DNA of 64,000 nt, taken from a virus. The notes beneath the pieces were generated by a model. It was given only the letters and a program-made list of their open reading frames with translations, was not told the origin of the DNA and made no database searches. The translations under genes and the position numbers were made by a program. Shown here piece by piece: positions 17,868 to 34,116 of this stretch (positions within the stretch are counted from its first letter, which is position 1; each line of letters begins with the position of its first letter). Location: positions 64,001 to 128,000 of IMG/VR virus record IMGVR_UViG_3300021962_000028, one strand, 5' to 3'.

Positions 17868-17894
17868 ACTACAAAGATAATATTTTTTATTTAA

Positions 17895-18131: not shown

Positions 18132-18260
18132 TTATATTCCAAAGTTCTTTTCCTCCATTTTTCATATGACAGTTATGGGGTTTATCCATTCGTTTGGAGA
18201 ACCCAACAATCATATCATTATGTTTATTCCTTACAACCCAAGGACATTCTTTACAACTCA

Positions 18261-18920: not shown

Positions 18921-18921
18921 C

Positions 18922-20101: not shown

Positions 20102-20102
20102 A

Positions 20103-20513: not shown

Positions 20514-20559
20514 ACTATAATTTTTTTTACTAATTTTCTTCATTTGACAAATATATGGA

Positions 20560-21060
20560 TTAACTACCAACTTTCCAAGCGAAGTTTACAATCTTTCTTT
20601 TTTTAACTGCGTCTTCAGTATTACCAATAACAACACCATCTTTAATTGTAAACGCGTGTCTACTAACACACATAACATAAGTTCCTTTTGGGTATTTTTT
20701 AATAAAAGTACCTACGGTCATTTTACGATTAACTTTCTTACCTTTTACTGTAACAGTATACTCAAGAGTGTTGAAAGACGAATGTTCAATAGGTTTCCCC
20801 ATTTCTTTACAACATTTACGACCAATACGAACACGGTCTTTAGCGAATTTATTCATTCCAGGAATGAATCCAAAAGTACCTTGTCTTGGTTTACGTCCAA
20901 ATTTATCAGCAACAAATTTATGAGCCTTATCATATTCAATATCAAATGCCGATGCTATCGCACGAACAACACAGTCATTAGTTTCAGATTTTGCGATAGA
21001 AGAATTATCATAACCTTTAATCGCTTCGGATGTCTTACAGTATGGTAGTTGATTTTTCAT
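20560..21060 (-). CDS. Hypothetical phage protein (DCVVRAI family)
   Basis: NDCVVRAI...H...DG Cys/His pattern. Confidence 0.55.
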   Translation of the reverse strand: MKNQLPYCKTSEAIKGYDNSSIAKSETNDCVVRAIASAFDIEYDKAHKFVADKFGRKPRQGTFGFIPGMNKFAKDRVRIGRKCCKEMGKPIEHSSFNTLEYTVTVKGKKVNRKMTVGTFIKKYPKGTYVMCVSRHAFTIKDGVVIGNTEDAVKKRKIVNFAWKVGS

Positions 21061-21105
21061 AAGACAAAGATATGAAGAATATTTTAATTGGCAAAGAAAA
21101 ATATG

Positions 21106-21191
21106 CGGAAGATGAGGGGCTCGAACCCTCGCGACTTTAACATCCTACCTGTTTAGCAAACAGGCCCCTTCACCAACTTGGGTAATCTTCC
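21106..21191 (-). tRNA. tRNA-Ser(GCT)
   Basis: Cloverleaf, CCTGT-TT-GCT-AA-ACAGG, long variable arm. Confidence 0.92.
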
Positions 21192-21196
21192 AATAG

Positions 21197-21268
21197 TAGT
21201 CCCTGAGGGATTCGAACCCCCACTAAAACATCCGTAGTGTTTCGTGCTCTCCGTTACACCAAGAGACT
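21197..21268 (-). tRNA. tRNA-Arg(ACG)
   Basis: AAACA-CT-ACG-GA-TGTTT. Confidence 0.9.
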
Positions 21269-21274
21269 GTACAT

Positions 21275-21478
21275 CTAATTAAAGGTATATTTCATATCTT
21301 CATTAAAGATAAAAACATTACCTTCTTGAGTTATACCTAACTTACTCAAAACAATATTAAATTCTTCTTGAGTGAAAAATTTAGATTGTACCAACCTGTA
21401 ATACGAGTTTAATAAATCAACTATCTCAGGTTCTGAAATTTGATGGGTGTTTAATAATTCATTTAATTTGTCTGTCAT
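21275..21478 (-). CDS. Small hypothetical protein
   Basis: Likely start MTDKLNELL; the upstream extension in the ORF track overlaps structured RNA. Confidence 0.5.
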   Translation of the reverse strand: MTDKLNELLNTHQISEPEIVDLLNSYYRLVQSKFFTQEEFNIVLSKLGITQEGNVFIFNEDMKYTFN

Positions 21479-21504
21479 ATATTTTAGGATTTTAAGTGTC
21501 AGAA

Positions 21505-21915
21505 TAAAAAGGTCCTGAATCATCCCTCCGCCTTCTGAGGAGAACCTTTTAGTTTTTAGTATAGTTTGGCGTTCATAGTATCCCACACCGATATGACTAA
21601 GATTCGTTAGCCCATAGTAACCATCCACGGTGGGTCTGTACTCTCACCCATATTTCAGGGTTACCCTCAGAACATCTTCACCCTACCCCCAAAGTTACGT
21701 GGCGAGTCTCACTCGGAAGACAGAGTGTGTATTGTAAGATTGTTCAGTGTTCTTACAACTTGTGGATTGTATTACGACTAATTAAAGCCCCTCACCCCCT
21801 TAATCCATAATGGGGAATCCTTGTTTGTTTGTGTAGCCTCCCCCATAGCCTTGAAGCCTTCAAGTCAGGTTCACACTCCATAACGGTAGGATATTTCCGT
21901 TAATCGTGGGGTCTT
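21505..21915 (-). ncRNA. Candidate structured non-coding RNA(s), about 410 nt
   Basis: GC-enriched spacer in the tRNA operon with hairpins such as TAACGG/CCGTTA, TTGTAAGA/TCTTACAA and AAAGGT/ACCTTT. Confidence 0.45.
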
Positions 21916-21918
21916 TTG

Positions 21919-22003
21919 CGGAGGAAGTAGGATTCGAACCTACGGTACCTTGCGGTACGCTAGTTTTCAAGACTAGTGCAATCGACCACTCTGCCATTCC
22001 TCC
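21919..22003 (-). tRNA. tRNA-Ser(TGA)
   Basis: CTAGT-CT-TGA-AA-ACTAG, long variable arm. Confidence 0.93.
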
Positions 22004-22102
22004 AATTTAGGTCGTCACGAACCCATCTGTGACTTATTACTAGATACTTGTAGTTTACTTACTATAGTTTAATCCGTTACTACAAGGGAACCCAACCTAT
22101 CG

Positions 22103-22176
22103 GGTGACTAACGGGAATCGAACCCGTGACAACTTGAACCACAATCAAGTGCTCTGCCTACTGAGCTATAGCCACC
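22103..22176 (-). tRNA. tRNA-His(GTG)
   Basis: CTTGA-TT-GTG-GT-TCAAG; encoded G-1 and C73. Confidence 0.92.
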
Positions 22177-22390
22177 ATATTAATCGTTCAATCATTTTTG
22201 ACTGTCCCCAATACCGAATTTCAGCGGCAACTCACTTTTGTGAGGGGTTAGAACTTGTGTGTTAACTTACTCCTGTTACTGGTACACTAACCAACCGACT
22301 TAGACTCAAGTAATCGGCTCAGGTCCCTATGGTTGTAACACCACTTCTCATCATTCGGGAGCAAACTAGTCGTGTACTACTCGACTCGTG

Positions 22391-22492
22391 TAGTCAGGAC
22401 AGGATTCGAACCTATTCCGTCTTTGCCATAAAGAGTCATCCGTACTGTTACTCAACCTTGGGGAGGTGACACCAACCAATGGTCTCCTGACT
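22391..22492 (-). ncRNA. tRNA-like RNA with non-canonical anticodon/variable region (102 nt)
   Basis: AGTCAGG/CCTGACT acceptor stem and GGTTCGAATCC T-arm, but no standard anticodon arm. Confidence 0.65.
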
Positions 22493-22497
22493 ATTTG

Positions 22498-22631
22498 TAA
22501 TCAAGGTCGGACTCGAACCGAATACCGTTCAAGACGGATTAGACAACCTTACGACTCCATAGACCCCACAAGTGTCTGGGACTATTGGTCTTGGGGACTC
22601 GGGCACCGTCCCTCATTACGCCCACTTGATT
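22498..22631 (-). ncRNA. tRNA-like RNA with enlarged body (134 nt)
   Basis: AATCAAG/CTTGATT acceptor, GGGC/GCCC D-like stem, TCGG-TTCGAGT-CCGA T-arm. Confidence 0.65.
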
Positions 22632-22706
22632 ATTTACCCCACTTCACCAGGTTAACGGACTGGCTGCCATATGGGAGTGGGGGTTTCCCGTTAATTCGGG
22701 ACTCCG

Positions 22707-22779
22707 TGGAACGGGGCGGAATCGAACCGCCGACACCTTGCTCTTCAGGCAAGTGCTCTACCAACTGAGCTACCGTTCC
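22707..22779 (-). tRNA. tRNA-Phe(GAA)
   Basis: CTTGC-CT-GAA-GA-GCAAG (G37). Confidence 0.92.
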
Positions 22780-22784
22780 AAGTA

Positions 22785-22921
22785 TGATAATGATGGAGTA
22801 CCCGTCTCGCTCCAATCTTAACTGCTTTCCTGAGTTTTAGGAGGCCTCGGCAGAAAGGGTGATGAACTATTTTTCCATTCGGAATTGTCGACATTCCATT
22901 GAATGGTAAGAACCATTATCA
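22785..22921 (-). ncRNA. Candidate multi-stem ncRNA, about 137 nt
   Basis: Closing stem TGATAATG/CATTATCA enclosing three hairpins. Confidence 0.55.
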
Positions 22922-22932
22922 ATATTTTAAAA

Positions 22933-23159
22933 ATTGGTGAGACCTTAAGATTTACTCATTCGTGGGTCACCCCATCCGTTCTACCTAGACCTCGCCTTTA
23001 ACATCCGTTCTACCCAAACCATCGTTTTTACCTGTTAACCTTTCGGAAAACTTTGAGTACCTCCTCAATGAGTTAATCTGATAGGGGCTCCATCTTGCTC
23101 GTCATTTCTGACTCCCTATGGGGTTCTGCTGATATAGGTCTATCTGCTATCTTACCAAT
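22933..23159 (-). ncRNA. Candidate structured ncRNA, about 227 nt, with a duplicated 13-mer
   Basis: Closing stem ATTGGTAAGA/TCTCACCAAT, inner stem AGATTAACTCATT/AATGAGTAAATCT, GGTAGAACGGATG twice. Confidence 0.55.
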
Positions 23160-23167
23160 CTAATTAT

Positions 23168-23245
23168 TCAAAGAACTCTTTTGACAGGGGAGTAGGTCAC
23201 CAACTTACCAACTACCTACCCCCCTTCAACCACATTACAAATGTA
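23168..23245 (-). promoter_or_regulatory. Internal TAnnTTTG promoter, leader hairpin and boxA-like element
   Basis: tacatttg (23238-23245), a GC-rich hairpin at 23187-23224, gttctttga (23168-23176). Confidence 0.6.
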
Positions 23246-23278
23246 CGGCAAATTATTTAATTCTCCAAACATTTTTTG

Positions 23279-23350
23279 TAGTTCCTGTAGGATTCGAACC
23301 TACGACAACTTGTATGTAAAACAAGGGCTCTTCCACTGAGCTAAGGAACT
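23279..23350 (-). tRNA. tRNA-Val(TAC)
   Basis: CTTGT-TT-TAC-AT-ACAAG. Confidence 0.92.
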
Positions 23351-23356
23351 GTTAAG

Positions 23357-23428
23357 TACCGATGGGAAGAATTGAACTTCCGACACCTTCCGTATGAAAG
23401 AAGTGCTCTACCACTGAGCTACATCGGT
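23357..23428 (-). tRNA. tRNA-Met(CAT), elongator type
   Basis: Paired 1-72; TT-CAT-AC loop as in bacterial elongator Met tRNAs. Confidence 0.8.
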
Positions 23429-23482
23429 ATTTTGGTGGACGTAGACTCATCACCTACTCTTGGGTTTCCACCGAACCCCTTG

Positions 23483-23553
23483 TTGTCCCTGAAGGATTCG
23501 AACCTCCACCGCGTGGACCAAAACCACGTGTCCTGCCATTAGACCAAAGGACA
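23483..23553 (-). tRNA. tRNA-Gln(TTG)
   Basis: CGTGG-TT-TTG-GT-CCACG; U1-A72. Confidence 0.92.
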
Positions 23554-23609
23554 GTTTGACTGTTTTTCCGATATTTATAGACTGGCATAAACCTTTAATC
23601 AAATTTATA

Positions 23610-23774
23610 ATGACTAAAGAACAAATCCAAGGTATCGTTAGACACGCACTTACTTTTGTGGGTGGTATCCTGATTATGAAAGGTCTTGCAACTGATTCAA
23701 CAGTTCAAGAACTTATCGGAGCTGCAGTTACATTAGTTGGTGGTGTATGGTCAATTATTGCTAAACAGAAATAA
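23610..23774 (+). CDS. Small two-TM holin-like protein
   Basis: MTKEQIQGIVRHALTFVGG...VGGVWS; TATTTATA upstream and a terminator downstream. Confidence 0.65.
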   Translation: MTKEQIQGIVRHALTFVGGILIMKGLATDSTVQELIGAAVTLVGGVWSIIAKQK

Positions 23775-23792
23775 TTGATAACGACCTAATCG

Positions 23793-23826
23793 AAAAAGAG
23801 GGGATTTATATCCCCTTTTTTATTTT
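23793..23826. terminator. Bidirectional intrinsic terminator
   Basis: aaaaagaggggat-ttat-atccccttttt. Confidence 0.7.
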
Positions 23827-23827
23827 G

Positions 23828-23908
23828 TGGGAGTGGAGGGATTCGAACCCCCAATGTCGTAAGACCACTGATTTACAGTCAGCTAAGCAACCGTTGCTCA
23901 ACACTCCC
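23828..23908 (-). tRNA. tRNA-Tyr(GTA)
   Basis: GCTGA-CT-GTA-AA-TCAGT, long variable arm. Confidence 0.9.
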
Positions 23909-23911
23909 AAT

Positions 23912-24048
23912 TTAGGAAAACAGAAGATGGTTCAGTGGACATCTGTTTTTACGATTAGCGTTACTCGGGTGAATACCTGCAAACTCCGATTATATTAGTC
24001 AGTATTCACTCTCGAACTATCAATACAATCATTCCCTAATCAACCTAA
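23912..24048 (-). ncRNA. Candidate structured ncRNA, about 137 nt
   Basis: TTAGG/CCTAA closing stem plus GATTAG/CTAATC, GTGAATAC/GTATTCAC and AAAACAGA/TCTGTTTT stems. Confidence 0.5.
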
Positions 24049-24056
24049 TTTTTTTG

Positions 24057-24128
24057 CGGCCAGGGAGAATTACGATATCTCGACCTATCGCTTAACAGGC
24101 GATTGCTCTTCCTCTGAGCTACCTGGCC
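24057..24128 (-). tRNA. tRNA-Asn(GTT)
   Basis: ATCGC-CT-GTT-AA-GCGAT; atypical T-loop ATCGTAA. Confidence 0.88.
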
Positions 24129-24133
24129 ATTTG

Positions 24134-24206
24134 CACGCCTACCAAGATTCGAACTTGGAACAACAGTTTTGGAGACTGTGATGATAAACCGTTTCACCAT
24201 AGACGT
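24134..24206 (-). tRNA. tRNA-Trp(CCA)
   Basis: ACAGT-CT-CCA-AA-ACTGT. Confidence 0.92.
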
Positions 24207-24211
24207 ATTTG

Positions 24212-24283
24212 AGGTCGGTACAGGAATCGAACCTGTGTAGATAGTTTTGCAGACTATCGCCTAAACCACTCGGCCAACCGACC
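24212..24283 (-). tRNA. tRNA-Cys(GCA)
   Basis: ATAGT-CT-GCA-AA-ACTAT; U73. Confidence 0.93.
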
Positions 24284-24289
24284 CTATTG

Positions 24290-24364
24290 TGTCCCCGACA
24301 GGACTCGAACCTGTGACTCCCTCATTAAAAGTGAGGTGCTCTAAACCAACTGAGCTACGAAGAC
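24290..24364 (-). tRNA. tRNA-Lys(TTT)
   Basis: CCTCA-CT-TTT-AA-TGAGG. Confidence 0.93.
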
Positions 24365-24370
24365 ATTAAG

Positions 24371-24444
24371 TTGTCACAGATGGGCTCGAACCATCGACCT
24401 TTCGCGTATCAGGCGAACGCTCTAACCAACTGAGCTATGTGACA
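24371..24444 (-). tRNA. tRNA-Ile(GAT)
   Basis: TTCGC-CT-GAT-AC-GCGAA. Confidence 0.92.
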
Positions 24445-24450
24445 ATGTTG

Positions 24451-24522
24451 TCGGGGTGGCGGGAGTCGAACCCGCCGCCTCGTGTTCCCAAAACACGCGT
24501 CTCTCCTCGAGACTACACCCCG
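24451..24522 (-). tRNA. tRNA-Pro(TGG)
   Basis: CGTGT-TT-TGG-GA-ACACG; C1-G72. Confidence 0.92.
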
Positions 24523-24543
24523 TTTACTTTTCTTACCAATATG

Positions 24544-24552
24544 TCAAAGAAC
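24544..24552 (-). promoter_or_regulatory. boxA-like element (GTTCTTTGA)
   Basis: Lies between attenuator terminator 1 and the first tRNA. Confidence 0.65.
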
Positions 24553-24562
24553 ACTTTATTAC

Positions 24563-24594
24563 AAAAAAAAATCCTGAACTTTTTGAGTTCAGGA
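24563..24594 (-). terminator. Attenuator terminator 1
   Basis: UCCUGAACU-caaaa-AGUUCAGGA followed by a U-tract. Confidence 0.8.
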
Positions 24595-24631
24595 CTTTGA
24601 TATATTTGTTGTATGTTTTTCTAAAATTACA

Positions 24632-24742
24632 TTACACTAAATCATCATTAACTGAACTTGTATGCGAAATACGCGGATACGAACAATTACTAAATTGTTG
24701 TTTCCAAATCACGACGTTCATATGTTTATTAGTGTTTTTCAT
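24632..24742 (-). CDS. Leader peptide 1 (36 aa) MKNTNKHMNVVIWKQQFSNCSYPRISHTSSVNDDLV
   Basis: Not in the ORF track. A-rich start context, TAnnTTTG promoter at 24788-24795, anti-terminator AGUUCAG (24652-24658); codons match the downstream tRNAs. Confidence 0.8.
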   Translation of the reverse strand: MKNTNKHMNVVIWKQQFSNCSYPRISHTSSVNDDLV

Positions 24743-24829
24743 TTTTTCTATTTGTTGTGGTATCTCTACCTGTTTCTATAATTACTACAAAGTTACGAAA
24801 AATTACGTAATTGTCAAATATTTTTTATT

Positions 24830-25414
24830 TTATTTTAAAAAAGATAATACTTTTTCTTTAATACCAGATTGTTTTAACCCTTCATTACCTCTTGGAGTCA
24901 ATACAAAATTTTCTAAACCCCAATCGTGAACCCATTTAATCGAATACGACATCCCTTCTTTACCCATATCAAGGTCGTCGATAGCTACCCACTCAGTAAC
25001 CTCAGGATGATTCTTTAAGTATTGGTTGATTTCCAATGTACGAGTCTGTTCTAAATCCCAATCTCTATTCCAAGGGAACGAACCATCGTAGTTATTACAT
25101 TCACTTAAGTTAGGTGTAAAGGCGATTGGTTTTTTATTAATTCCTTGGGACTCGTAATACTCTCCCATTTCCTCAACGGTACACCATCTTTTCCAATCTG
25201 ATGATACCACAATTTCCGCACCAGTTTTTTCCAAGATTTCGTTAAGAACTTTAATAGCTTTCTTATTGAAATTATCAAAACGGTATTCTAATGGCATTTC
25301 CTTTGGGGTCATTGATAACTTTTGACCGTCCCATTTATTTCGTTTCTTATAACGACCACCCCACTCTGTGGATAAACAGATTACTCCGTCGTGGTCTAAA
25401 AATATAACTTTCAT
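24830..25414 (-). CDS. HAD-family phosphatase (RNA-repair-associated HAD type)
   Basis: FLDHDGV, SSDWK and AIDD motifs; start reassigned to MKVIFLD. Confidence 0.8.
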   Translation of the reverse strand: MKVIFLDHDGVICLSTEWGGRYKKRNKWDGQKLSMTPKEMPLEYRFDNFNKKAIKVLNEILEKTGAEIVVSSDWKRWCTVEEMGEYYESQGINKKPIAFTPNLSECNNYDGSFPWNRDWDLEQTRTLEINQYLKNHPEVTEWVAIDDLDMGKEGMSYSIKWVHDWGLENFVLTPRGNEGLKQSGIKEKVLSFLK

Positions 25415-25686
25415 TTTTTTTCTATTTTTTTTAAAACCATAGACGACCATTTTTGTCTTGGCCCGTTTTTCATTAACACCTCGTTGATAAAAGTCTCAGC
25501 ATCAGGAAGATTGTTGAATTTTAGAACGGTGTTGTAAGACCCACTCTCATAACATTCTTTATACTTTACGTACGACCACCATTTAAACCATAAAAATTTT
25601 TTAGATTCTTTTATACAGAAATGAACTTGGTTACTAATACCATTCTCATTAAAATAATCTTCTCTAATAATCAGGTAACTTTTCAT
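25411..25686 (-). CDS. Hypothetical protein
   Basis: 91-aa ORF after a TAnnTTTG motif. Confidence 0.5.
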   Translation of the reverse strand: MKSYLIIREDYFNENGISNQVHFCIKESKKFLWFKWWSYVKYKECYESGSYNTVLKFNNLPDAETFINEVLMKNGPRQKWSSMVLKKIEKK

Positions 25687-25701
25687 AGTACAAATATACG
25701 A

Positions 25702-25869
25702 CTATTTTTTAATAATATAACCATATTGGTTTAAAATTAGAATAATCCCTAAAATGGATAAACCAAGACAAATTATTTTAACAATAACGTCAATGAATGT
25801 TTTCTTACTCCATATAACCCCAAAGATTAGGAATATAATTGTCGCAATAATATTGAATATAAGTTGCAT
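25702..25869 (-). CDS. Small two-TM membrane protein
   Basis: Likely start MQLIFN; the longer track ORF overlaps a tRNA. Confidence 0.5.
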   Translation of the reverse strand: MQLIFNIIATIIFLIFGVIWSKKTFIDVIVKIICLGLSILGIILILNQYGYIIKK

Positions 25870-25890
25870 ATTTGTTTTTTTAGATATTTG

Positions 25891-25964
25891 TGGTCCATAC
25901 AGGACTTGAACCTGTGACCTTCTCATTATGAGTGAGCTGCTCTAACCAACTGAGCTAAAGGACC
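25891..25964 (-). tRNA. tRNA-Ile2(CAT), probably lysidine-modified and reading AUA
   Basis: GGTCCTTTAGCTCAGTTGGTTAGAGCAG...CT-CAT-AA body resembles bacterial Ile2 tRNAs. Confidence 0.75.
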
Positions 25965-25970
25965 TATTTG

Positions 25971-26043
25971 AGCCTCCTGTAGGATTCGAACCTACGACCC
26001 CTTCATTACAAGTGAAGTGCTCTACCAGCTGAGCTAAGGAGGC
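25971..26043 (-). tRNA. tRNA-Thr(TGT)
   Basis: CTTCA-CT-TGT-AA-TGAAG. Confidence 0.93.
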
Positions 26044-26328
26044 CTATTTAATTTTCTTATATACGTAAGTTATTGTGTCCCCTATTTTGTAGATATCGTC
26101 CCTATCTGTTGAGAATGCTTGTCCGCACTCTGTTTTGTAGTAATATTTTGGAGTTAATTCATTAATTGCCACAGGTTGTTTAACCCAAGAACTATCTATA
26201 ACGCATTTAACAACTTTGTCCCCTGGTTCAATTTTATTTCTATTTTCACACCCTGTTAATACAAAGGCAATAATACCAATTAATAAAAACCAAATAATGG
26301 CAAATACGTACGGTGCGAACTTTTTCAT
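26044..26328 (-). CDS. Putative lipoprotein
   Basis: Hydrophobic signal ending in LTGC. Confidence 0.55.
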   Translation of the reverse strand: MKKFAPYVFAIIWFLLIGIIAFVLTGCENRNKIEPGDKVVKCVIDSSWVKQPVAINELTPKYYYKTECGQAFSTDRDDIYKIGDTITYVYKKIK

Positions 26329-26347
26329 ATATTATTTTTTTTGTAAT

Positions 26348-26602
26348 TTAAACAACCAAATACTTTATAGAATTTTTTTTAATCCATTCTGAATCATATT
26401 TAAACTCCTTCCAATTGTCGAAGTCCTTAAGTTCTTCTAATACCTCATTAGGTACTAATGTAAACCCTTCAGGTGCAATACCATCAAATTTATGATATGC
26501 AGAATGTTCTATTTTTTCTTTCATCATTTGACAGAATAACTCACTTTTGATAAACTCATTATGTTCTTCTTCAAATACAATATCTTGATTAATATCAACC
26601 AT
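26348..26602 (-). CDS. Hypothetical protein
   Basis: 84-aa ORF. Confidence 0.5.
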   Translation of the reverse strand: MVDINQDIVFEEEHNEFIKSELFCQMMKEKIEHSAYHKFDGIAPEGFTLVPNEVLEELKDFDNWKEFKYDSEWIKKNSIKYLVV

Positions 26603-26617
26603 AATTTCTTAATTTAG

Positions 26618-26689
26618 TAGCCCCACCAAGAATCGAACTTGGAACTAATCTTTAGAAGAGATTCGTTATATCCATTTAACTATGGAGCC
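26618..26689 (-). tRNA. tRNA-Arg(TCT)
   Basis: AATCT-CT-TCT-AA-AGATT. Confidence 0.92.
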
Positions 26690-26694
26690 ATTTG

Positions 26695-26871
26695 TTAGAC
26701 TTTTTTAACTAAGTAAACGTGACCTGAGTCTGAGTTTTTAGAAAAAATATCTCTCATTTTAATTGCTTCTTCCTCGGTTTCAAATTCCCATATTTCAGAG
26801 TGACCATCTAATATGATAACAGGAACTTTAACTCCGTTAAGACTTTCCATTAATTTTACAATTACCCACAT
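26695..26871 (-). CDS. Small hypothetical protein (58 aa)
   Basis: Manual translation MWVIVKLMESLNGVKVPVIILDGHSEIWEFETEEEA...; promoter motif at 26890-26897. Confidence 0.55.
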   Translation of the reverse strand: MWVIVKLMESLNGVKVPVIILDGHSEIWEFETEEEAIKMRDIFSKNSDSGHVYLVKKV

Positions 26872-27106
26872 AATATTTTATTTACACTACAAATTTAGTA
26901 AAAATTATCCGAATTTACAAATTAAAACAACTTTTAAGTGAAAATAATATAAAAAAAATTATTACTAACAGAATTGAGTAACCGAAAACTTTATTATTTC
27001 TTTCAACCTTTTCTTTTGAACGACCTTGCCATTCATCAGAATCCCATACTTCAGAATCCCATTCTTCATTTTCCATACTTAATAAGTATTACTAAATTTA
27101 TTTGTG

Positions 27107-27178
27107 CGGTCTATGAGGGAATCGAACCCTCCTCACTACCGTGACAGGGTAGCATCCTAGCCGATGAACGAATAGACC
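27107..27178 (-). tRNA. tRNA-Asp(GTC)
   Basis: CTACC-CT-GTC-AC-GGTAG; G73. Confidence 0.92.
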
Positions 27179-27186
27179 AATTTTTG

Positions 27187-27259
27187 CGGTCCCGACGGGA
27201 TTCGAACCCGTACCTCGCACCGTGACAGGGTGGAATTGTAACCATTCAACCACGGGACC
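27187..27259 (-). tRNA. tRNA-Asp(GTC), second divergent copy
   Basis: CCACC-CT-GTC-AC-GGTGC; G73. Confidence 0.9.
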
Positions 27260-27265
27260 TTTTTG

Positions 27266-27338
27266 AGCGGAAGACGGGACTCGAACCCGCAACCCCCGAC
27301 TTGGAAGGACGGTGCTCTACCAATTGAGCTACTTCCGC
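27266..27338 (-). tRNA. tRNA-Gly(TCC)
   Basis: CCGTC-CT-TCC-AA-GTCGG; U73. Confidence 0.92.
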
Positions 27339-27418
27339 ATTTTTGGGTAGAATCAGACGCGTTCTGTCTACCGAGACCTCGTCGTTAACTTTCGTCAGAG
27401 CGGACCGAGACACTTTTG

Positions 27419-27492
27419 TTGCGGGTGAGGGACTCGAACCCCCGTCTTTGGCTTATGAGACCAAGCTGGAACCACCTCCAGTCTAACCCACG
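27419..27492 (-). tRNA. Initiator-like tRNA-Met(CAT)
   Basis: C1.A72 mismatch; TTGGT-CT-CAT-AA-GCCAA. Confidence 0.8.
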
Positions 27493-27503
27493 ATATATTA
27501 TTT

Positions 27504-27593
27504 GTTATCACTTCAGCCACATCGTGAAAGCCGCCCCTCACGCGTTGTTTAAAGGAATCCGATTGCGGCCTCATCCTACTGAGTTATGATAAC
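27504..27593 (-). ncRNA. Candidate small structured RNA (90 nt)
   Basis: GTTATCA/TGATAAC closing stem and GCCGCA-ATCG/CGA-TGTGGC inner stem. Confidence 0.45.
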
Positions 27594-27597
27594 TTTG

Positions 27598-27669
27598 TTG
27601 CGGGAGGAGGATTCGAACCTCCGACCTCAAGGTTATGAGCCTTGCGAGCTACCACTGCTCTATCCCGCG
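27598..27669 (-). tRNA. Initiator tRNA-fMet(CAT)
   Basis: CGCGGGATAGAGCAG start, C1.A72 mismatch, CAAGG-CT-CAT-AA-CCTTG. Confidence 0.88.
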
Positions 27670-27675
27670 ATGTTG

Positions 27676-27749
27676 TGGAGATGGTGAGAATCGAACTCAC
27701 CCCAGATTGATTGCAAATCATTCTCGTCGGCCTTGAGACATACACCCCC
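27676..27749 (-). tRNA. tRNA-Ala(TGC)
   Basis: G3.U70 identity pair, TT-TGC-AA loop, atypical D and anticodon stems. Confidence 0.82.
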
Positions 27750-27756
27750 ATTTTTA

Positions 27757-28020
27757 TTATGAATACTTTTTAGCGATATTCATAATAGTATCTTCATCTT
27801 CTTTACTCATTCTATGATAAGAATTTGCTAAAACATCACAATAATCCCTATGAGTTTCCTCAATTAGTGTATATTGATTTGGTTTACCAGGACCCTTACT
27901 ATTTTTAGTTAAGTGACCTCTTTCGATTAATTCATCAATTAATTCATTAATTTCACTTTTAGAGCATTCATCAATAAATTCATAAACCTCTAAATCAATG
28001 TAAGTGCTAAATTCAGGCAT
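27757..28020 (-). CDS. Hypothetical protein
   Basis: 87-aa ORF within the tRNA operon. Confidence 0.55.
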   Translation of the reverse strand: MPEFSTYIDLEVYEFIDECSKSEINELIDELIERGHLTKNSKGPGKPNQYTLIEETHRDYCDVLANSYHRMSKEDEDTIMNIAKKYS

Positions 28021-28040
28021 AATAGTTATTTTTAAGTTTG

Positions 28041-28112
28041 TAGTCCCTACGGGAATCGAACCCGTCTTTTATCCGTGAAAGGGATATGTCCTAACCGATA
28101 GACGAAGGGACC
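28041..28112 (-). tRNA. tRNA-Glu(TTC)
   Basis: TATCC-CT-TTC-AC-GGATA. Confidence 0.93.
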
Positions 28113-28147
28113 ATTTTTAAATCTTTTACAAAGATACAACCAATATT

Positions 28148-28156
28148 TCAAAGAAC
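28148..28156 (-). promoter_or_regulatory. boxA-like element (GTTCTTTGA)
   Basis: Just downstream of attenuator terminator 2. Confidence 0.65.
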
Positions 28157-28170
28157 AAAATTTTACAAAT

Positions 28171-28200
28171 AAAAAAACCCATCTCTTTTGGAGATGGGTT
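28171..28200 (-). terminator. Attenuator terminator 2
   Basis: AACCCAUCUC-caaaa-GAGAUGGGUU followed by a U-tract. Confidence 0.82.
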
Positions 28201-28224
28201 CAGTGAATTCATAGTATAGGAATA

Positions 28225-28299
28225 TCACACCATCTCCATTGGAGTAGTCGCTTCAGTTCTATCTGTCCCGCCTATTAGTATGATATGTATTGTTTTCAT
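28225..28299 (-). CDS. Leader peptide 2 (24 aa) MKTIHIILIGGTDRTEATTPMEMV
   Basis: Not in the ORF track. Anti-terminator UGGAGAUGG (28230-28238) is complementary to the terminator 5' arm; codons match the downstream tRNAs. Confidence 0.8.
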   Translation of the reverse strand: MKTIHIILIGGTDRTEATTPMEMV

Positions 28300-28361
28300 T
28301 TGCAGTTTTACTTGTTTTTTATTAAATATACGTATGTAACGTAAAAAGTCAAATTTTATTT

Positions 28362-30152
28362 TTAAAAATTAAATCCTCCCCCTCTTTTTGTGTTAATTCC
28401 ACTTGTTCTACCCGTCTTTTTACCAGATGGGACGGTATATGGTATTACAACATCTCTACTATTCTGTCTTTTTTGGTCAATTAAATCCTTGTCAATTTTT
28501 TTAACAACTTTTTTATCGGACAATAATGATAAAATATTCTTACGAATATCTTCTACCGTACTATTATCTGACTTTTCAATTGATTTAGATGTAGCTTCAT
28601 TATTAGTATTGACTAACTTACTATCGGTATCTACAAACGTATTTTTAGAATAAACTTGTTTTAACGTATCAATAGTACTGTGTTGGGGGGTATCAATTAC
28701 GGGTTTAGTGGCCGTATTATAATAATAATTGATTTTACCGATGTCAGTTTTAGGGTAAATTCTAATAAAGGTAGAAGTCTTTAATTCATCTAATGGTCCA
28801 AAATTTGTTTTTGAATTTGTTAACTCAATATAATGTTTTCGTAATTTAGAACCATAGTTAGTTTCAGGATTAGTCGTTAATCCATTTTCGTGAATTCTTC
28901 GATAAAATAATGTTTCCTCAATTCGTTTAAAGGTCACACCATTTTTTTGGGTTCTAACCATAAAATCCGAATCTGCCGCACATCTCCAACCCTCAAAACC
29001 ATTAAAATGGTGAAAAATATGTTTTCTAATTCCAAAAACCCCTTCACCAAATAAATTAGAATATGTTTTATATTTTGGGTCATCGTAATTAATTTCTTCT
29101 TTAAAGTCGTGATACATAGGTTTAACACATTCATAATCAGTAAGGGTATTAATTATCTTGAAAACCATATCATCCGACATAACATCGTCAGAATCAAAAA
29201 ATATTAAATTTTCTGTTTTAGAAATTTTTGACAATGTATTCTTAATAACATAAGGACCAACATTTTCTTCAAAGTAAAATAACTTAATTCTAAAATCGAA
29301 TATGTTTTCTCGCACAAACTTTAAAGTTTTTTCACATTTATCAATTCCAACTAAGATTTCAAAGTTTTGTAATTGATTACAAGAATTAACTACAGAATCT
29401 AAACATTCTTTTAAAAAGTCCACATTATTAAATGTTGGTATAATAACCGAAACTTCTTTATCCAAATAGGATTCGTTAGTAAGGGTTGTTTGAATAAAAT
29501 CGGAACGTAAATCTTTTTCATAGATAGACCCTTCAAAATTTTGTTGGGTAACGTATCCGCTATTATGTTTTGCACATATAATATCAATGTTATTTTCTTT
29601 AGCATATTTACCAATCCATACATCCGCCATATTTGGTCTATCAAAATATTCTATTGGAACTTTAAATAAATCAGTATGGAAACACATAACACCTGTCCCA
29701 CCAAATTGAACTTTAGTATCTTGAGATAAAAGTTGTTTAAAGTGGTATACTGAAGTATTACGTCCATAAAAACTATTAATAGGAAATGAGTTAAATGTTC
29801 GAGCGTGTAAAGTAATAATCGACTTCCTTTTATATTGATTAACCTTATCAATCATATATTCAGTGTAGTTTTCAGGGTAAATTAAGTCGTCATCTATGGT
29901 GAAAAAATACCCGTCGGAATTCATTAAATTATAAAATTTATAAGCATCCCCTCTATCATTATCCGAAATAAATAAATTTATTTTTTTATCATACAGTTCA
30001 GGTGGAATCTCGGTATAATCATTTAATGCTACATTTATAATGTCAGATTGATTATAAATCGATTCAATAGTTTTAATCAGAGTATCCCCTCTTTTATAAC
30101 TGGCGACATTATATATTACTTTATCCATACTTTTTTTAAAATTATATTGCAA
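28362..30152 (-). CDS. Two-domain GT-A glycosyltransferase (GT2-like)
   Basis: FTIDDDLIYP in domain 1; VSVIIPTFN...FFDSDD...ADSDF in domain 2. Confidence 0.85.
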   Translation of the reverse strand: MQYNFKKSMDKVIYNVASYKRGDTLIKTIESIYNQSDIINVALNDYTEIPPELYDKKINLFISDNDRGDAYKFYNLMNSDGYFFTIDDDLIYPENYTEYMIDKVNQYKRKSIITLHARTFNSFPINSFYGRNTSVYHFKQLLSQDTKVQFGGTGVMCFHTDLFKVPIEYFDRPNMADVWIGKYAKENNIDIICAKHNSGYVTQQNFEGSIYEKDLRSDFIQTTLTNESYLDKEVSVIIPTFNNVDFLKECLDSVVNSCNQLQNFEILVGIDKCEKTLKFVRENIFDFRIKLFYFEENVGPYVIKNTLSKISKTENLIFFDSDDVMSDDMVFKIINTLTDYECVKPMYHDFKEEINYDDPKYKTYSNLFGEGVFGIRKHIFHHFNGFEGWRCAADSDFMVRTQKNGVTFKRIEETLFYRRIHENGLTTNPETNYGSKLRKHYIELTNSKTNFGPLDELKTSTFIRIYPKTDIGKINYYYNTATKPVIDTPQHSTIDTLKQVYSKNTFVDTDSKLVNTNNEATSKSIEKSDNSTVEDIRKNILSLLSDKKVVKKIDKDLIDQKRQNSRDVVIPYTVPSGKKTGRTSGINTKRGGGFNF

Positions 30153-30846
30153 TTAGTTTTTCTTGTTTTCTTAATTCAGGTAAAAACATTGATTCGTGGT
30201 CTCCGTGAGTTGTTAATGAATCAATTACGTGATACATATTCAAACCTTTGGAGAATAGTCTATTACTTATTTGGTCCCCAACTCCGCAACTAAGATTTGG
30301 GTTATTATCCCACCTATTTGGACTTATTGGATTTATATTAAAATCTAATGATTCAAAAAAGTTATACTTACATATGAATACTAATTCACACCACTGAGTT
30401 TTATAATATTCGTTATATTCTATCGGTAAAACTCCCGTCCATTTTGGTTGATTTCTTTGTGATTCTATCATAAGAGTACCCAAAGTCATTTTATTATCAT
30501 CAGGAATACTTTCAAAAATCCTAACACTTTCTTCAAAGAAATTATCTTTTAACCTTAAATCATCTTGTAAATAAACAAAATAATCTGAATTAATATTTTT
30601 ACAATATTTGAATGTGTCAGTAATGACTTTCCAAACATTTTTTAACCCATTATTTTTAATATACTTAATATATTTAACATCATAATCCTCAAGATTATAA
30701 GGTTCTTTACTTCCATCATCAAATACGGTCACCAATATATTATATTGGGTATTTTTGAATATATCATCTAAAAGATTTTTTAACATCTCCTCCCGATTAT
30801 AAGTTGTAATAATCACACAAAAATCGTATTTCTCTTTATCTTTCAT
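30142..30846 (-). CDS. GT2-family glycosyltransferase
   Basis: VIITTYNR, FDDGS, YLQDD. Confidence 0.85.
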   Translation of the reverse strand: MKDKEKYDFCVIITTYNREEMLKNLLDDIFKNTQYNILVTVFDDGSKEPYNLEDYDVKYIKYIKNNGLKNVWKVITDTFKYCKNINSDYFVYLQDDLRLKDNFFEESVRIFESIPDDNKMTLGTLMIESQRNQPKWTGVLPIEYNEYYKTQWCELVFICKYNFFESLDFNINPISPNRWDNNPNLSCGVGDQISNRLFSKGLNMYHVIDSLTTHGDHESMFLPELRKQEKLIAI

Positions 30847-31394
30847 TAATGTAATATTGTAAATGTTTTTTTATCTTCACAAATTATAGATGAAGTTATG
30901 TTTTTATTTAGTTTTTCTGATAAAAATATAGACATATTCTTATCATTTTCTCTATTAGTATCATCAATAATTATTGGTATGTCTGTTTTAAACATTTCAT
31001 AATTATTAATAATATTAACTCTGTTTTCCCCTATTGGACCGTCAATAAGTAATAAATTGTAATTGGTGGGTAATTCAGTTTTTAAAATTTCAACGTCGTA
31101 CCATCCATCTACTAAAGGTGCGTAGATATATTTTGAATCAGGTACTAAATCAACCCATTCAATATCGTGTTCAACACTATAAACATTATAAAATTTAACT
31201 AATTCTTTGGTACCATTACCACTACCTAATTCAAGAATAGTACTTCCTTTGGGTATGTTTTTAAAAATCCAATCAAACAGTTCTTTTGATATTGCCCAAC
31301 CGCCAAATGAATCATAATTAACCTCACGTTTTAAGTCAGTGTTAGTAACTACTCTTTTTGTACCTACAACTCTTTTGTTGTTTATTCTATTCAT
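30846..31394 (-). CDS. Class I SAM-dependent methyltransferase
   Basis: ILELGSG.GT, SVEHD..W, LLIDGP, IIDDT.R. Confidence 0.8.
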   Translation of the reverse strand: MNRINNKRVVGTKRVVTNTDLKREVNYDSFGGWAISKELFDWIFKNIPKGSTILELGSGNGTKELVKFYNVYSVEHDIEWVDLVPDSKYIYAPLVDGWYDVEILKTELPTNYNLLLIDGPIGENRVNIINNYEMFKTDIPIIIDDTNRENDKNMSIFLSEKLNKNITSSIICEDKKTFTILH

Positions 31395-31447
31395 TTAATA
31401 ACATTTCTATTTATAATTATAAGTATAATTATTTTTAAATCTATAAT

Positions 31448-32272
31448 ATGGTAAAAACAGTAGGAGTAGTTGGTAATGGTTTTGTTGGGGAAACTATTGC
31501 GTTTGCATTTAGCCCAACATCTAACGTAAAAATCTATGACGTTAACCCATTGAAAACAACCCATACATTAGAAGAGGTTATGGGACAAGAATTTATTTTT
31601 GTATGTCTACCAACCCCAATGTTAAGTGATGGGTCTCAAGACATTTCATTTATTGAAGACTTCTTCGGTAGTGTAATTTATAATGAAAATACTGTTTTTA
31701 TTATAAAATCAACTATACTACCAGGCACTACGGAGTCTTTAATTAAGAAGTACGGTCATAATATTGTTTTTTCACCTGAGTTTTTAACCGAGAGAACTGC
31801 TAAGTTAGATATGTTAACACAATCAAGAATTATTTTAGGAGGTGAACCATCTTTAACTAAACGAGTTGAAGAATTATTCAATGACCGATTTATGAATAGA
31901 CACATTATTCATACCGATTCTAAAACTGCTGAGTTTGTGAAATATATGAACAACACATTCTTTGCGGCAAAAGTTAGTTTGATGAACGAATATTATCGAC
32001 TAAGTCAATTAATTGGTGTTAATTGGGACGACGCACTTTATGGGTTCGCGTCCGATGGTAGAATTGGAGATTCCCACTTACACGTACCAGGTCCTGATGG
32101 TAAATTAGGGTTTGGAGGAACTTGTTTTCCAAAAGACATAAACGCACTTATCACAATGGCAAAAGAAGTGGGTTGTAATATGAATGTATTAGAGTCCGCG
32201 TGGAAAACTAATTTGGAAGTCAGACCTGAACAAGATTGGAAATCTTTAAAGGGTAGGGCGGTTTCAGAATAA
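31448..32272 (+). CDS. UDP-glucose/GDP-mannose dehydrogenase family protein (short form)
   Basis: GNGFVG, CLPTP, IKST, SPEFL, AE..KY..N.F, GFGGTCFPKD. Confidence 0.88.
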   Translation: MVKTVGVVGNGFVGETIAFAFSPTSNVKIYDVNPLKTTHTLEEVMGQEFIFVCLPTPMLSDGSQDISFIEDFFGSVIYNENTVFIIKSTILPGTTESLIKKYGHNIVFSPEFLTERTAKLDMLTQSRIILGGEPSLTKRVEELFNDRFMNRHIIHTDSKTAEFVKYMNNTFFAAKVSLMNEYYRLSQLIGVNWDDALYGFASDGRIGDSHLHVPGPDGKLGFGGTCFPKDINALITMAKEVGCNMNVLESAWKTNLEVRPEQDWKSLKGRAVSE

Positions 32273-32304
32273 GGACATATTTATAAGAAAGAAAACCGTA
32301 AATT

Positions 32305-32409
32305 ATGAAAACGTATAACAACACAGGTCTTTTGATACAGGATAACATTATCACATCGTTATGTGGCAATGGTATAGTGACCTTACGCGGTTTAGATAAA
32401 CAAAAATAA
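32305..32409 (+). CDS. Leader peptide 3 (34 aa) MKTYNNTGLLIQDNIITSLCGNGIVTLRGLDKQK
   Basis: Not in the ORF track. TATTTATA motif upstream; anti-terminator GUGACCUU (32377-32384). Confidence 0.65.
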   Translation: MKTYNNTGLLIQDNIITSLCGNGIVTLRGLDKQK

Positions 32410-32437
32410 GATTAGTTAAACTAAAAACGTATAAAAG

Positions 32438-32467
32438 AAAGGTCACAAGAAATTGTGACCTTTTTTT
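32438..32467 (+). terminator. Attenuator terminator 3
   Basis: AAAGGUCACAA-gaaa-UUGUGACCUUU followed by a U-tract. Confidence 0.8.
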
Positions 32468-32502
32468 GTTTTATTAAAAAAATGTATTAAATTTGTACAG
32501 TT

Positions 32503-33000
32503 ATGGATAGAGTATTAGTATTAAATGCGGATTACACTCCGTTAAACGTGACTTCGTCTCAAAGGGGATTCAAGTTAGTGTTTAAAGGTAAAGCGGAAGT
32601 CTTAAAGAGTTCCGATAACCCTATCTATGCAGGATATCAAAATTTTGTTCGTCCATTAATTATACGTTTATTGAAGTATGTAAAATACCGAGTTAGAAAT
32701 ATTAGGGTTAACAGAAATAGAATTTATAGACGGGATGGTGGAGAGTGTGTTTATTGTGGTTCAACAAAACAATTAACTTTGGACCACGTTATACCAAAGT
32801 CTAAAGGAGGTAAGAATACTTGGAGTAATTTGGTTACTTGTTGTCATAAGTGTAACTTATACAAAGCGGATAGAAATCCACAAGAAGCTGGTATGAATAT
32901 GAGGACAAAACCGTATGAACCAAGTCTGTTCTCAGACGTATTGAATAATTCAATTGAACGTGTGTGGATTGATTATAAAAGTTCGATGGGATTTGATTAA
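32503..33000 (+). CDS. HNH endonuclease
   Basis: VLVLNA.Y.P, RD...CVYCG, TLDHVIP.S.GG...W.NLVTCC..CN..K. Confidence 0.9.
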   Translation: MDRVLVLNADYTPLNVTSSQRGFKLVFKGKAEVLKSSDNPIYAGYQNFVRPLIIRLLKYVKYRVRNIRVNRNRIYRRDGGECVYCGSTKQLTLDHVIPKSKGGKNTWSNLVTCCHKCNLYKADRNPQEAGMNMRTKPYEPSLFSDVLNNSIERVWIDYKSSMGFD

Positions 33001-33015
33001 TCCAAATTTATTTCG

Positions 33016-33039
33016 TACATTTGTACCATAGTTCTTTGA
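33016..33039 (+). promoter_or_regulatory. TAnnTTTG promoter plus boxA-like element
   Basis: tacatttg at 33016-33023 and gttctttga at 33031-33039. Confidence 0.65.
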
Positions 33040-33042
33040 AAC

Positions 33043-33128
33043 GCTCGGGTGGTGGAATAGGTAGACACGTCAGACTTAAAATCTGATGGACCGTAAGGTC
33101 CGTGCGGGTTCGATTCCCGCCCCGAGTA
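33043..33128 (+). tRNA. tRNA-Leu(TAA)
   Basis: TCAGA-CT-TAA-AA-TCTGA, long variable arm. Confidence 0.93.
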
Positions 33129-33342
33129 CTAAGAGTAAGGGATACTCTGAAAGTTTGGTAACGTTCTTTATAAATGTTATAGTTGTCGCCTTCCACGACT
33201 TTAGAGAGGGGGTTCGTCGGATCCTGGACGTAACAAATCCACCGAGTATGTTTGACTTTTATGTGCGGGTAAGACCGTCTCGTGTTTTCAATAGGAAAAC
33301 AGAAGAAAAATCCACTCACCGTAATCTCAGGTGGGTACTCAC

Positions 33343-33422
33343 ATCAGAGTGGTGGAATTGGTAGACACGTATGCCTTAGGAGCATATGCTACGGCGTGAG
33401 GGTTCGAGTCCCTCCTCTGATA
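33343..33422 (+). tRNA. tRNA-Leu(TAG)
   Basis: TATGC-CT-TAG-GA-GCATA. Confidence 0.93.
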
Positions 33423-33441
33423 CTAAATTTAAAATTTAAAT

Positions 33442-34116
33442 ATGGATAACGCAAAAGAATTTAAATCGTACTACACGAAACACTTGTATAAACCATCAAG
33501 TCATTTGGATTACTACTCAAAACAAATTGAGAATTCTATGACTCCATACATTTTGGAAGAAAGAGAAATGAGGGCGACTCAAATCGACATCTTCTCAAGA
33601 TTAATGAGAGACCGTATCTTATGGGTCGCTGGTGAAGTTAATGATAATATGTCAACTATTGTTCAGGCTCAGTTAATGTTCTTGGATTCTGCGGACAGTA
33701 CAGACATCACAATGCACATTGATAGTCCAGGTGGGTCGGTTAAATCAGGTCTAAGTATGGTTGACGTTATGGATTACATTAAATGTGATATCCGTACAGT
33801 AAACACAGGTATGGCAGCATCAATGGGTTCAGTATTGTTAGGTGCAGGAACAAAGGGAAAACGTTCTTCATTACGTTTCTCAAGAACAATGTTACACCAA
33901 TCTTCAGGTGGGTTCCGTGGAAATATCCAAGATGCGGAAATCGATATGAAAGAATGGAAAAAAATCAACGAGACACTATTTGAATTACTTGGTAGTTACT
34001 GTGATAAAACGGCAAAACAAGTAATGAAAGATGCAAGTCGTGACTTATGGTTATCTTCACAAGAGGCACTTAATTACGGTATCATTGATGAAATCGTAAA
34101 ATCTAAGAAGGGGTAA
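33442..34116 (+). CDS. clpP: ATP-dependent Clp protease proteolytic subunit
   Basis: DIFSRL..RI, DSPGG, GMAASMGS (Ser), MLHQ (His), RD.W (Asp), YGIID. Confidence 0.95.
   Translation: MDNAKEFKSYYTKHLYKPSSHLDYYSKQIENSMTPYILEEREMRATQIDIFSRLMRDRILWVAGEVNDNMSTIVQAQLMFLDSADSTDITMHIDSPGGSVKSGLSMVDVMDYIKCDIRTVNTGMAASMGSVLLGAGTKGKRSSLRFSRTMLHQSSGGFRGNIQDAEIDMKEWKKINETLFELLGSYCDKTAKQVMKDASRDLWLSSQEALNYGIIDEIVKSKKG

Follow-up and report, generated by a model that had tools for sequence, protein, structure and literature searches.

Leader-peptide attenuation is textbook knowledge for amino-acid biosynthesis. In the enterobacterial attenuators (trpL, thr with its Thr and Ile codons, and ilvGMEDA with its Ile, Leu and Val codons), a short translated leader and an intrinsic terminator precede the first regulated gene, the antiterminator overlaps the 3' end of the leader open reading frame (ORF), an upstream segment can sequester the antiterminator, and the regulatory codons, several amino acids per leader, are placed where a stalled ribosome frees the antiterminator. 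We analyzed a 64,000-nt stretch of viral DNA (bases 64001-128000 of the 158,622-bp IMG/VR record IMGVR_UViG_3300021962_000028, hereafter the window) in which the same layout precedes a block of ten tRNA genes. This element, leader 2, is probably a ribosome-mediated leader-peptide transcription attenuator that controls read-through into the tRNA genes (block 2). Relative to the enterobacterial systems, leader 2 would regulate tRNA genes rather than biosynthetic enzymes, and its output would be the sensed molecule; it contains no runs of a single codon but 7-8 codon families used one to five times each, a boxA follows its terminator and it lies in a setting of Bacteroidota-type translation without Shine-Dalgarno sequences. 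Homology with the enterobacterial leaders is neither expected nor seen.

Two other classes of regulators are comparable in part. T-box riboswitches also sense tRNA status through the choice between an antiterminator and a terminator, but they bind uncharged tRNA directly, without translation, and control aminoacyl-tRNA synthetase and amino-acid genes; the phage element presents no T-box match and is too small. In the pyrBI/pyrE-type attenuators, the outcome is likewise set by the closeness of the ribosome to RNA polymerase through a leader ORF. There, however, the ORF enters the terminator and the ribosome blocks the terminator, whereas the stop codon of the phage leader lies 23 nt before the stem and the ribosome would block the antiterminator instead. 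We know of no described case of leader-peptide attenuation controlling tRNA genes, and full-text literature searches returned no account of one.

The locus is on the minus strand, downstream of a glycosyltransferase gene (Pfam Glycos_transf_2) whose stop is at 28362. Its order is promoter, 24-codon ORF, terminator, rrn-type boxA and ten-tRNA block, with the following features (window coordinates):
28353-28323, minus strand: leader promoter, with a -33 element TTTG (28353-28350), a 19-nt spacer and a -7 box TATATTTA (28330-28323)
28299-28225, minus strand: leader ORF of 24 codons plus TGA, encoding the peptide MKTIHIILIGGTDRTEATTPMEMV, with an A-rich 5' untranslated region
28286-28276, minus strand: region 1, AUAUCAUACUA, codons 5-8, the 5' strand of helix P1
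28238-28222, minus strand: region 2, in which UGGAGAUGG (28238-28230), the 5' strand of the antiterminator, overlaps UGGUGUGAUAU (28232-28222)
28201-28171, minus strand: intrinsic terminator, with an 11-bp stem (28201-28191/28185-28175), loop CAAAA and a U7 tract (28177-28171)
28157-28140, minus strand: rrn-type boxA, the 18-mer TGTTCTTTGAAATATTGG, behind the terminator
28159-28129, minus strand: internal promoter, TTTG-N19-TATCTTTG, a full Bacteroidota-type consensus
28112-25890, minus strand: tRNA block 2, ten tRNAs (ARAGORN, Rfam) with small ORFs interspersed, in the order Glu-TTC, Ala-TGC, two initiator-like CAT, Gly-TCC, two Asp-GTC, Arg-TCT, Thr-TGT and Ile2-like CAT
26921-26890, minus strand: a further promoter inside block 2

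The leader promoter, which can alternatively be read as TTGACT-N16-TATATT, directly follows the stop codon of the glycosyltransferase gene, and no terminator was found between the two. An earlier note, made from the sequence alone, had proposed the leader ORF, and on reading the sequence its position, peptide and codon list proved exact. The codons include three ATA, GGC/GGG, two ACA, three ACT, GAT, AGA, GAA, GAG and GCG. A codon check also confirmed the claim that none encodes Asn, Trp, Gln, Phe, Ser, Cys or Tyr. No Shine-Dalgarno sequence was found for the leader ORF; since 47 of the 48 long ORFs of the window lack one, this is no argument against translation. Block 2 starts with tRNA-Glu at 28112, and from there no terminator was predicted on the minus strand until 24598-24568. 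The tRNA types given in the note were correct according to ARAGORN, Rfam and matches to E. coli. The last CAT tRNA (25890-25964) is considered Ile2-like because its best E. coli matches are annotated as tRNA-Ile (82.7%, full length). The CAT tRNAs at 27597 and 27418 present the initiator C1xA72 mismatch, and the one at 27597 matches the four-copy E. coli tRNA-Met. One consequence had been missed: for its two internal ATG codons, the leader depends on the elongator-type Met tRNA, which is located in block 1 and not in block 2. The sensing of initiator tRNAs at initiation is a speculation. The second initiator-like CAT tRNA (27418-27492, minus strand) is peculiar in its long, unusual D-arm and its low tRNA score (38 bits); it is conserved in contig L009, and similar genes are found in several of the related blocks described below.

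We searched for relatives of this module in IMG/VR. Used as a probe, the HAD_SAK_2 gene located between the two tRNA blocks returned more than 200 relatives, and the glycosyltransferase returned one locus. The layout is common to two contigs (L009/L010 and L012/L013). In L009 and L013, the 260-nt module from promoter to tRNA-Glu is ~98% identical to the window and its flanks diverge: the glycosyltransferase is 77% identical in L009 and the upstream gene is unrelated in L013. Their leader ORFs are changed only at codon 4 (ATA, ACA, TTA) and by GGC to GGT. The wider family was searched by scanning for the 18-mer of boxA, then for terminators adjoining boxA and ORFs ending 10-45 nt before them. 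The resulting module family in phage contigs comprises type A, which is like leader 2 and has a consensus close to MKNLHIILLGGLAIAEDRSYMEMV, as well as some nine further leader families. These include the second leader of the window:
24562-24818, minus strand: leader 1, located before tRNA-Pro and made up of a promoter with a perfect TAACTTTG box, an ORF of 36 codons, a terminator and boxA

Scanning again, now with the type-A start, gave a total of 25 distinct type-A leaders. Each of them precedes tRNAs from the set Leu-TAA/TAG, initiator Met, Ile-TAT/Ile2, Gly, Glu, Asp, Ala, Arg-TCT and Thr, and the promoter CTTGACA...TATATTTA is a conserved upstream feature of all type-A leaders. Among 16 aligned homologs, 15 keep the start, frame and stop position of the leader ORF, and indel lengths are multiples of three. 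We sampled 401 bacterial genomes from the phylum to which a Chitinophagaceae genome belongs, and the 21-nt type-A start has no genuine match in them; the single match was rejected as a chance match inside a coding region. In one leader, L108:1054-1206, a +1 insertion brings in a stop codon (TAG) 13 nt ahead of the usual one, so that the ORF does not extend into the antiterminator strand; this copy may have decayed or be wired differently.

The 16-sequence type-A alignment and RNA folding were used to evaluate the alternative structures of the leader. The terminator hairpin (-15.9 kcal/mol) starts after a 23-nt spacer from the leader stop codon, and it is 98% paired across the alignment with three compensatory pairs. 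The antiterminator proposed in the earlier note is real by the same measures: UGGAGAUGG (28238-28230) pairs over 9 bp with CCAUCUCCA (28197-28189), which consists of the 5' arm and loop of the terminator. A 9-nt exact complement within ~70 nt has an expectation of ~3e-4 by chance. The antiterminator is paired in 93% of the alignment cells with two compensatory pairs; its covariation score was reached by none of 500 shuffles, and slid partners were only 40-60% paired. When the 3' arm of the terminator is withheld, the antiterminator becomes the minimum-energy fold. The fold of the full leader combines P1, inner hairpins and the terminator (-36.9 kcal/mol, z = -4.3). The three domains of the alternative folds are nearly equal in stability (-15.9, -16.5 and -16.7 kcal/mol). 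These results support the attenuator reading of the note, with both terminator and antiterminator conserved through compensatory changes in the 16 homologs.

A third structure could sequester the antiterminator strand. The note had suggested a competing hairpin, CUCC-AAU-GGAG, which is part of the minimum-energy fold but is paired in 70% of the homologs; given this weak conservation, we rejected it as the main competitor. The more likely anti-antiterminator candidate is the 11-bp helix P1 between regions 1 and 2, in which codons 5-8 pair with the stop region: its 3' strand, UGGUGUGAUAU (28232-28222), comprises the last codons, the stop codon and 3 further nt. P1 is 87% paired in the 16 homologs, and all of its 22 one-sided changes preserve pairing. 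It shares merely 3 nt with the antiterminator strand, and in the partial transcript it is less stable than the antiterminator (-17.3 vs -21.6 kcal/mol).

The 3' part of the ORF also complements the 5' arm of its own terminator in nearly all other leader families (-9 to -19 kcal/mol), and this complementarity persists even though the terminator sequences differ. For leader 1, the ORF segment AGTTCAG and the 5' and 3' arms of the terminator change together in L013 (to GGTTCGG). We further stepped a simple modelled ribosome footprint along leader 2 by A-site codon. The antiterminator stays intact with the A-site at codons 2-16, retains seven of nine pairs at codon 17 and is abolished from codon 18 to the stop.

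Based on these structures, the proposed mechanism is as follows. The attenuator would set the read-through of transcripts that start at the leader promoter or arrive from the glycosyltransferase operon upstream. A ribosome reaching the stop codon would cover region 2 (28238-28222), allowing the terminator to form and stop transcription. With a ribosome held up at any of codons 2-17, region 2 would stay free to capture the 5' arm of the terminator, and RNA polymerase would continue into the tRNAs. The read-through RNA would carry boxA, through which Nus factors are probably loaded to keep transcription of the untranslated array processive. This would amount to a negative feedback: when charged Thr, Ile(AUA), Gly, Asp, Arg(AGA), Glu or Ala tRNA is scarce, more of the block-2 tRNAs would be made. 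The phage thus probably makes more block-2 tRNAs when their codons are decoded slowly.

This mechanism implies that leader codons match the downstream tRNAs. We compared them across 19 modules, with expected codon counts derived from phage genes and under two decodings: strict wobble, in which U34 reads A and G, and box level, in which U34 reads all four codons of family boxes. The CAT tRNAs of the other blocks were typed by similarity to the three kinds found in the window. We found 285 cognate codons against 172 expected under strict decoding and 315 against 205 at box level, each of the 19 modules being above the expectation for its own block. Permuted leader-block pairings never reached the observed excess with all modules (0/20000) and did so in 1-2/20000 when each family was represented once. 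The excess is confined to the actual reading frame: 51% of in-frame codons are cognate, relative to 26-30% in the other two frames, the three reverse frames and shuffles. It is also concentrated in the sensing zone (218 vs 114 expected, 1.9x) relative to the tail (67 vs 58, 1.15x; Fisher P = 6e-6).

For leader 2 itself, 11 of the 23 codons are cognate under strict decoding (expected fraction 0.26, P = 0.02) and 15 of 23 at box level (0.34, P = 0.002). Restricting the count to codons 2-17 gave 10/16 (P = 0.002) and 12/16 (P = 0.001), respectively. An earlier count that treated all CAT tRNAs as elongator Met gave P = 0.05 for leader 2 and was superseded after the CAT typing. The codon-block match claimed in the note is supported, with the correction that three ACT codons and GGC need U34 superwobble in this phage. 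The two leaders of the window each match their own block better: the match of leader 2 is 0.65 to block 2 and 0.30 to block 1, and that of leader 1 is 0.71-0.77 to block 1 and 0.11 to block 2.

Variation among the 25 type-A leaders is suggestive, though no more than that, of leader codons tracking the tRNA content of the block. Outside P1, their Ile codons are ATA (17), ATT (4) and ATC (1), relative to a background of 29% ATA. Leaders with an Arg-TCT tRNA in the block use AGA only (5/5), whereas those with no Arg-TCT in at least 1.9 kb of downstream view use CGT or CGG (10/10). Homologs might have varied freely between ATA and ATT and between AGA and CGN, a check named in the note; instead, ATA is preferred and the choice of AGA or CGN follows the presence of Arg-TCT. 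Thr codons are more numerous in type-A leaders with a Thr tRNA downstream. The window lineage lacks the TTA/TTG leader codons kept elsewhere, and its Leu tRNAs have moved to the other strand with promoters of their own.

Rare codons seem to be preferred in type-A leaders. GGC represents 29% of their Gly codons and 2% of those in phage genes; L009 and L013 carry a Gly-GCC tRNA that was lost from the window. CGG (1% of Arg codons) was observed in three type-A leaders.

Several observations weigh against leader 2 being a sensor of block-2 tRNA supply. P1 presents no double compensatory change. The strict match of leader 2 alone is modest (11/23, P = 0.02), ACT (three codons) and GGC can be read by block 2 only via U34 superwobble, and the sense codons for K and H, the codons ATC, CTA and CCA, and M, M and V in the tail are served only by other tRNAs. 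The N-terminal codons of the leaders are conserved for structure and are non-cognate to the block. Type-A leaders are homologous to one another and so are their tRNA blocks, so part of the codon match reflects shared descent and is not independent. Each of the tracking tests draws on 3-5 lineages. One metatranscriptome contains short contigs identical to the tRNA region, and this match, being of contigs only, is silent on RNA starts, ends and levels. Finally, a full-consensus promoter lies between the terminator and tRNA-Glu, so read-through is not the sole route to the tRNAs, and in L108, L110, L117 and L128 a promoter is also found between the terminator and boxA.

The internal promoter had been raised as a caveat in the note, and it is indeed a full match to the consensus. 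It ends 17 nt before tRNA-Glu, and it is kept in L009 and L013 and absent from most other family members. Because of this full and conserved consensus, block 2 probably has basal expression, and the attenuator may modulate rather than strictly gate the tRNAs in this phage. In five other members (L127, L131, L135b, L136 and L141), the terminator touches boxA, which lies ~12 nt from the first tRNA, and no promoter fits between the terminator and the first tRNA. Their tRNAs must therefore come from read-through, the leader being the only route visible in these sequences.

It is unlikely, in our view, that the element is a real translation-coupled attenuator sensing general translation capacity or ribosome-RNA polymerase coupling, with a codon match that reflects the inherited composition of the family. 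Such an attenuator would also have conserved alternative structures and a conserved ORF; type-A peptides are alike whatever the exact block, L110 (4/22 vs 3.5 expected) and L135b (8/22 vs 6.2) show little codon excess, and in L142 and L193 the first features after the module are a promoter and a protein ORF. However, the codon excess is specific to the frame and to the sensing zone, the permutation of own against other blocks remains at 1-2/20000 at the family level, and the ATA preference and the choice of AGA or CGN track the tRNA content of the block. Unrelated leader families also match quite different blocks: the L158 leader, rich in D/E/V/L/A/W, precedes Asp, Asp, Glu, Val, Leu, Leu, Ala and Trp, and the L140 leader scores 26/33.

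The five members without room for a promoter between terminator and tRNA argue against a second and much less probable alternative, namely a small gene or small RNA, complete with promoter and terminator, that is independent of the tRNA arrays behind it. Under this scenario, the hairpin merely ends the leader and glycosyltransferase transcripts and the tRNAs are driven by internal promoters, as the strong terminator and the consensus promoter directly after it (also in L108, L110, L117 and L128) would allow. A covarying, conserved antiterminator has no role at a plain terminator. The conserved N-terminus MK(N/T)LHII and C-terminus EMV are compatible with a small gene, but these ends coincide with RNA helices and the middle of the peptide varies freely in sequence though not in codon class. 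The type-A start was also not found in the 401 sampled bacterial genomes, barring the one chance match in a coding region. We consider most improbable of all a riboswitch-like or protein- or tRNA-binding RNA switch, for example T-box-like, in which the ORF would be incidental. Two mutually exclusive structures, UGG motifs in the antiterminator strand and strong nucleotide conservation are compatible with such a switch, but the start, frame and stop of the ORF are conserved with in-frame indels and the codon enrichment is confined to the ORF frame. Rfam returned no family for the leader, whether in E-value mode (E <= 1) over 20000-34000 or in gathering mode over the whole window. With no match to any Rfam family at E <= 1, T-box included, no Stem I/specifier architecture and an element of only ~150 nt, a T-box identity was rejected. 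Overall, these comparisons favor the leader-peptide attenuator as the probable explanation.

The boxA element provides a second point of interest, since a host rrn boxA appears to be reused behind a conditional terminator. The phage 18-mer, which also resembles the E. coli boxA UGCUCUUUAACAA, is identical at all but one position to an rrn-spacer element: this C-variant lies between the spacer tRNA and the 23S rRNA of bacterial rrn operons (L308/L322/L247; Rfam-confirmed). The note had placed a boxA behind the terminator and TATCTTTG at 28136-28129, and both positions were confirmed (boxA at 28157-28140). Its claim that boxA belongs to the read-through transcript was also borne out: with boxA inside the internal promoter (28159-28129), in its spacer, the element can be present only in read-through RNA. 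More than 119 phage contigs contain the 18-mer, where it follows terminators, separates tRNAs or precedes them. In the window, related motifs lie directly before tRNA-Leu, tRNA-Phe and the transfer-messenger RNA (tmRNA), each behind a consensus promoter, and judging by these positions boxA is a mark of stable-RNA transcription units. Relative to the rrn boxA (the NusB/NusE site) and lambda nut, the 18-mer is nearly identical and is found at the rrn spacer position, but the phage copies lie behind a conditional terminator and before phage tRNA and tmRNA genes. In the window, boxA is also located in a promoter spacer. Outside rrn operons, several Bacteroidales genomes (L210, L211, L219, L223, L236, L248 and others) contain the 18-mer within a longer repeat, together with ATTACCG or TTTACACG, often just upstream of a TAnnTTTG promoter.

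It is possible, and we propose it tentatively, that giant Bacteroidota phages run their tRNA arrays as demand-controlled regulons, each block having a leader sensor made of its own codons, and that these form a self-regulating translation-rescue island. If this is true, a block would be turned on when host tRNAs are depleted or cleaved, for instance by anticodon-nuclease defences or host shut-off. Besides the arrays, the island would include tmRNA, ClpP and the neighbouring repair genes (RNA ligase, phosphoesterase, cREC and HAD). Attenuation would then, for the first time, have one and the same tRNA as its product and as the molecule that it senses. If the attenuator works as proposed, it would answer the question of how phages decide when to express their tRNA arrays, by a direct feedback from decoding speed for each codon family. 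It would also link phage tRNAs to tRNA-targeting host defences in a testable way, provide natural, compact and re-codable sensors of individual tRNA supply, and offer a rationale for the stable division of phage tRNA genes into blocks.

The source of the window points to an uncultured giant phage of Bacteroidota-type bacteria. The CheckV completeness of the record is ~53%, which for 158,622 bp fits a phage of roughly 300 kb. The host type is suggested by three lines of evidence: the promoter pattern TTTG-N18-20-TAnnTTTG occurs 17 times in the window (2.3 expected; 17 reached by no shuffle), a Shine-Dalgarno core is present in 1 of 48 long ORFs while start regions are 47% A, and the genomes matching the phage boxA 18-mer are mainly Bacteroidota. 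Candidate hosts are lake bacteria resembling Flavobacterium or Chitinophaga. A megablast against INPHARED returned tRNA-sized matches only and no close cultured relative. Phage DNA was detected in 20 runs from 10 studies of freshwater, wastewater and estuary metagenomes.

The tRNA arrays of the window are flanked by RNA-repair genes, tmRNA and ClpP, a neighbourhood that fits a phage investing in sustained translation. The RNA-repair and rescue set (16785-20570, 24830-25450 and 33442-34116) comprises an Rnl1-type RNA ligase, a calcineurin-like metallophosphoesterase, a cREC_REC cyclic-phosphate-processing protein, HAD_SAK_2 and, adjoining the tRNA-Leu genes, ClpP. A further component is the tmRNA:
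13250-13635, plus strand: tmRNA (Rfam RF00023, 101.8 bits), absent from the ARAGORN output

A consensus promoter (13199-13230) and a boxA-like motif TGTTCTTTGAAAATATGG abutting its 5' end lie upstream of the tmRNA, and a terminator follows at ~13645-13670. Two tRNA-Leu genes are on the strand opposite to the main arrays, and an HNH endonuclease gene (32503-33000, plus strand) is located directly upstream of their promoter. Before tRNA-Phe (23269-22780, minus strand), we observed a consensus promoter (23269-23238), a 12-bp G+C-rich hairpin and a boxA-like motif GTTCTTTGAATAATTAG, followed by ~380 nt of G+C-richer non-coding sequence up to the tRNA. The 460-nt non-coding stretch (23240-22780) has no Rfam match and no structure signal (fold z = -0.8); an unknown RNA is one possible interpretation and a decayed insert another. 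Finally, a very basic 42-aa ORF (Lys/Arg/Gly-rich) with its own terminator (62849-62977, minus strand) is directly followed by a promoter, a boxA-like motif and a lone second tRNA-Phe.

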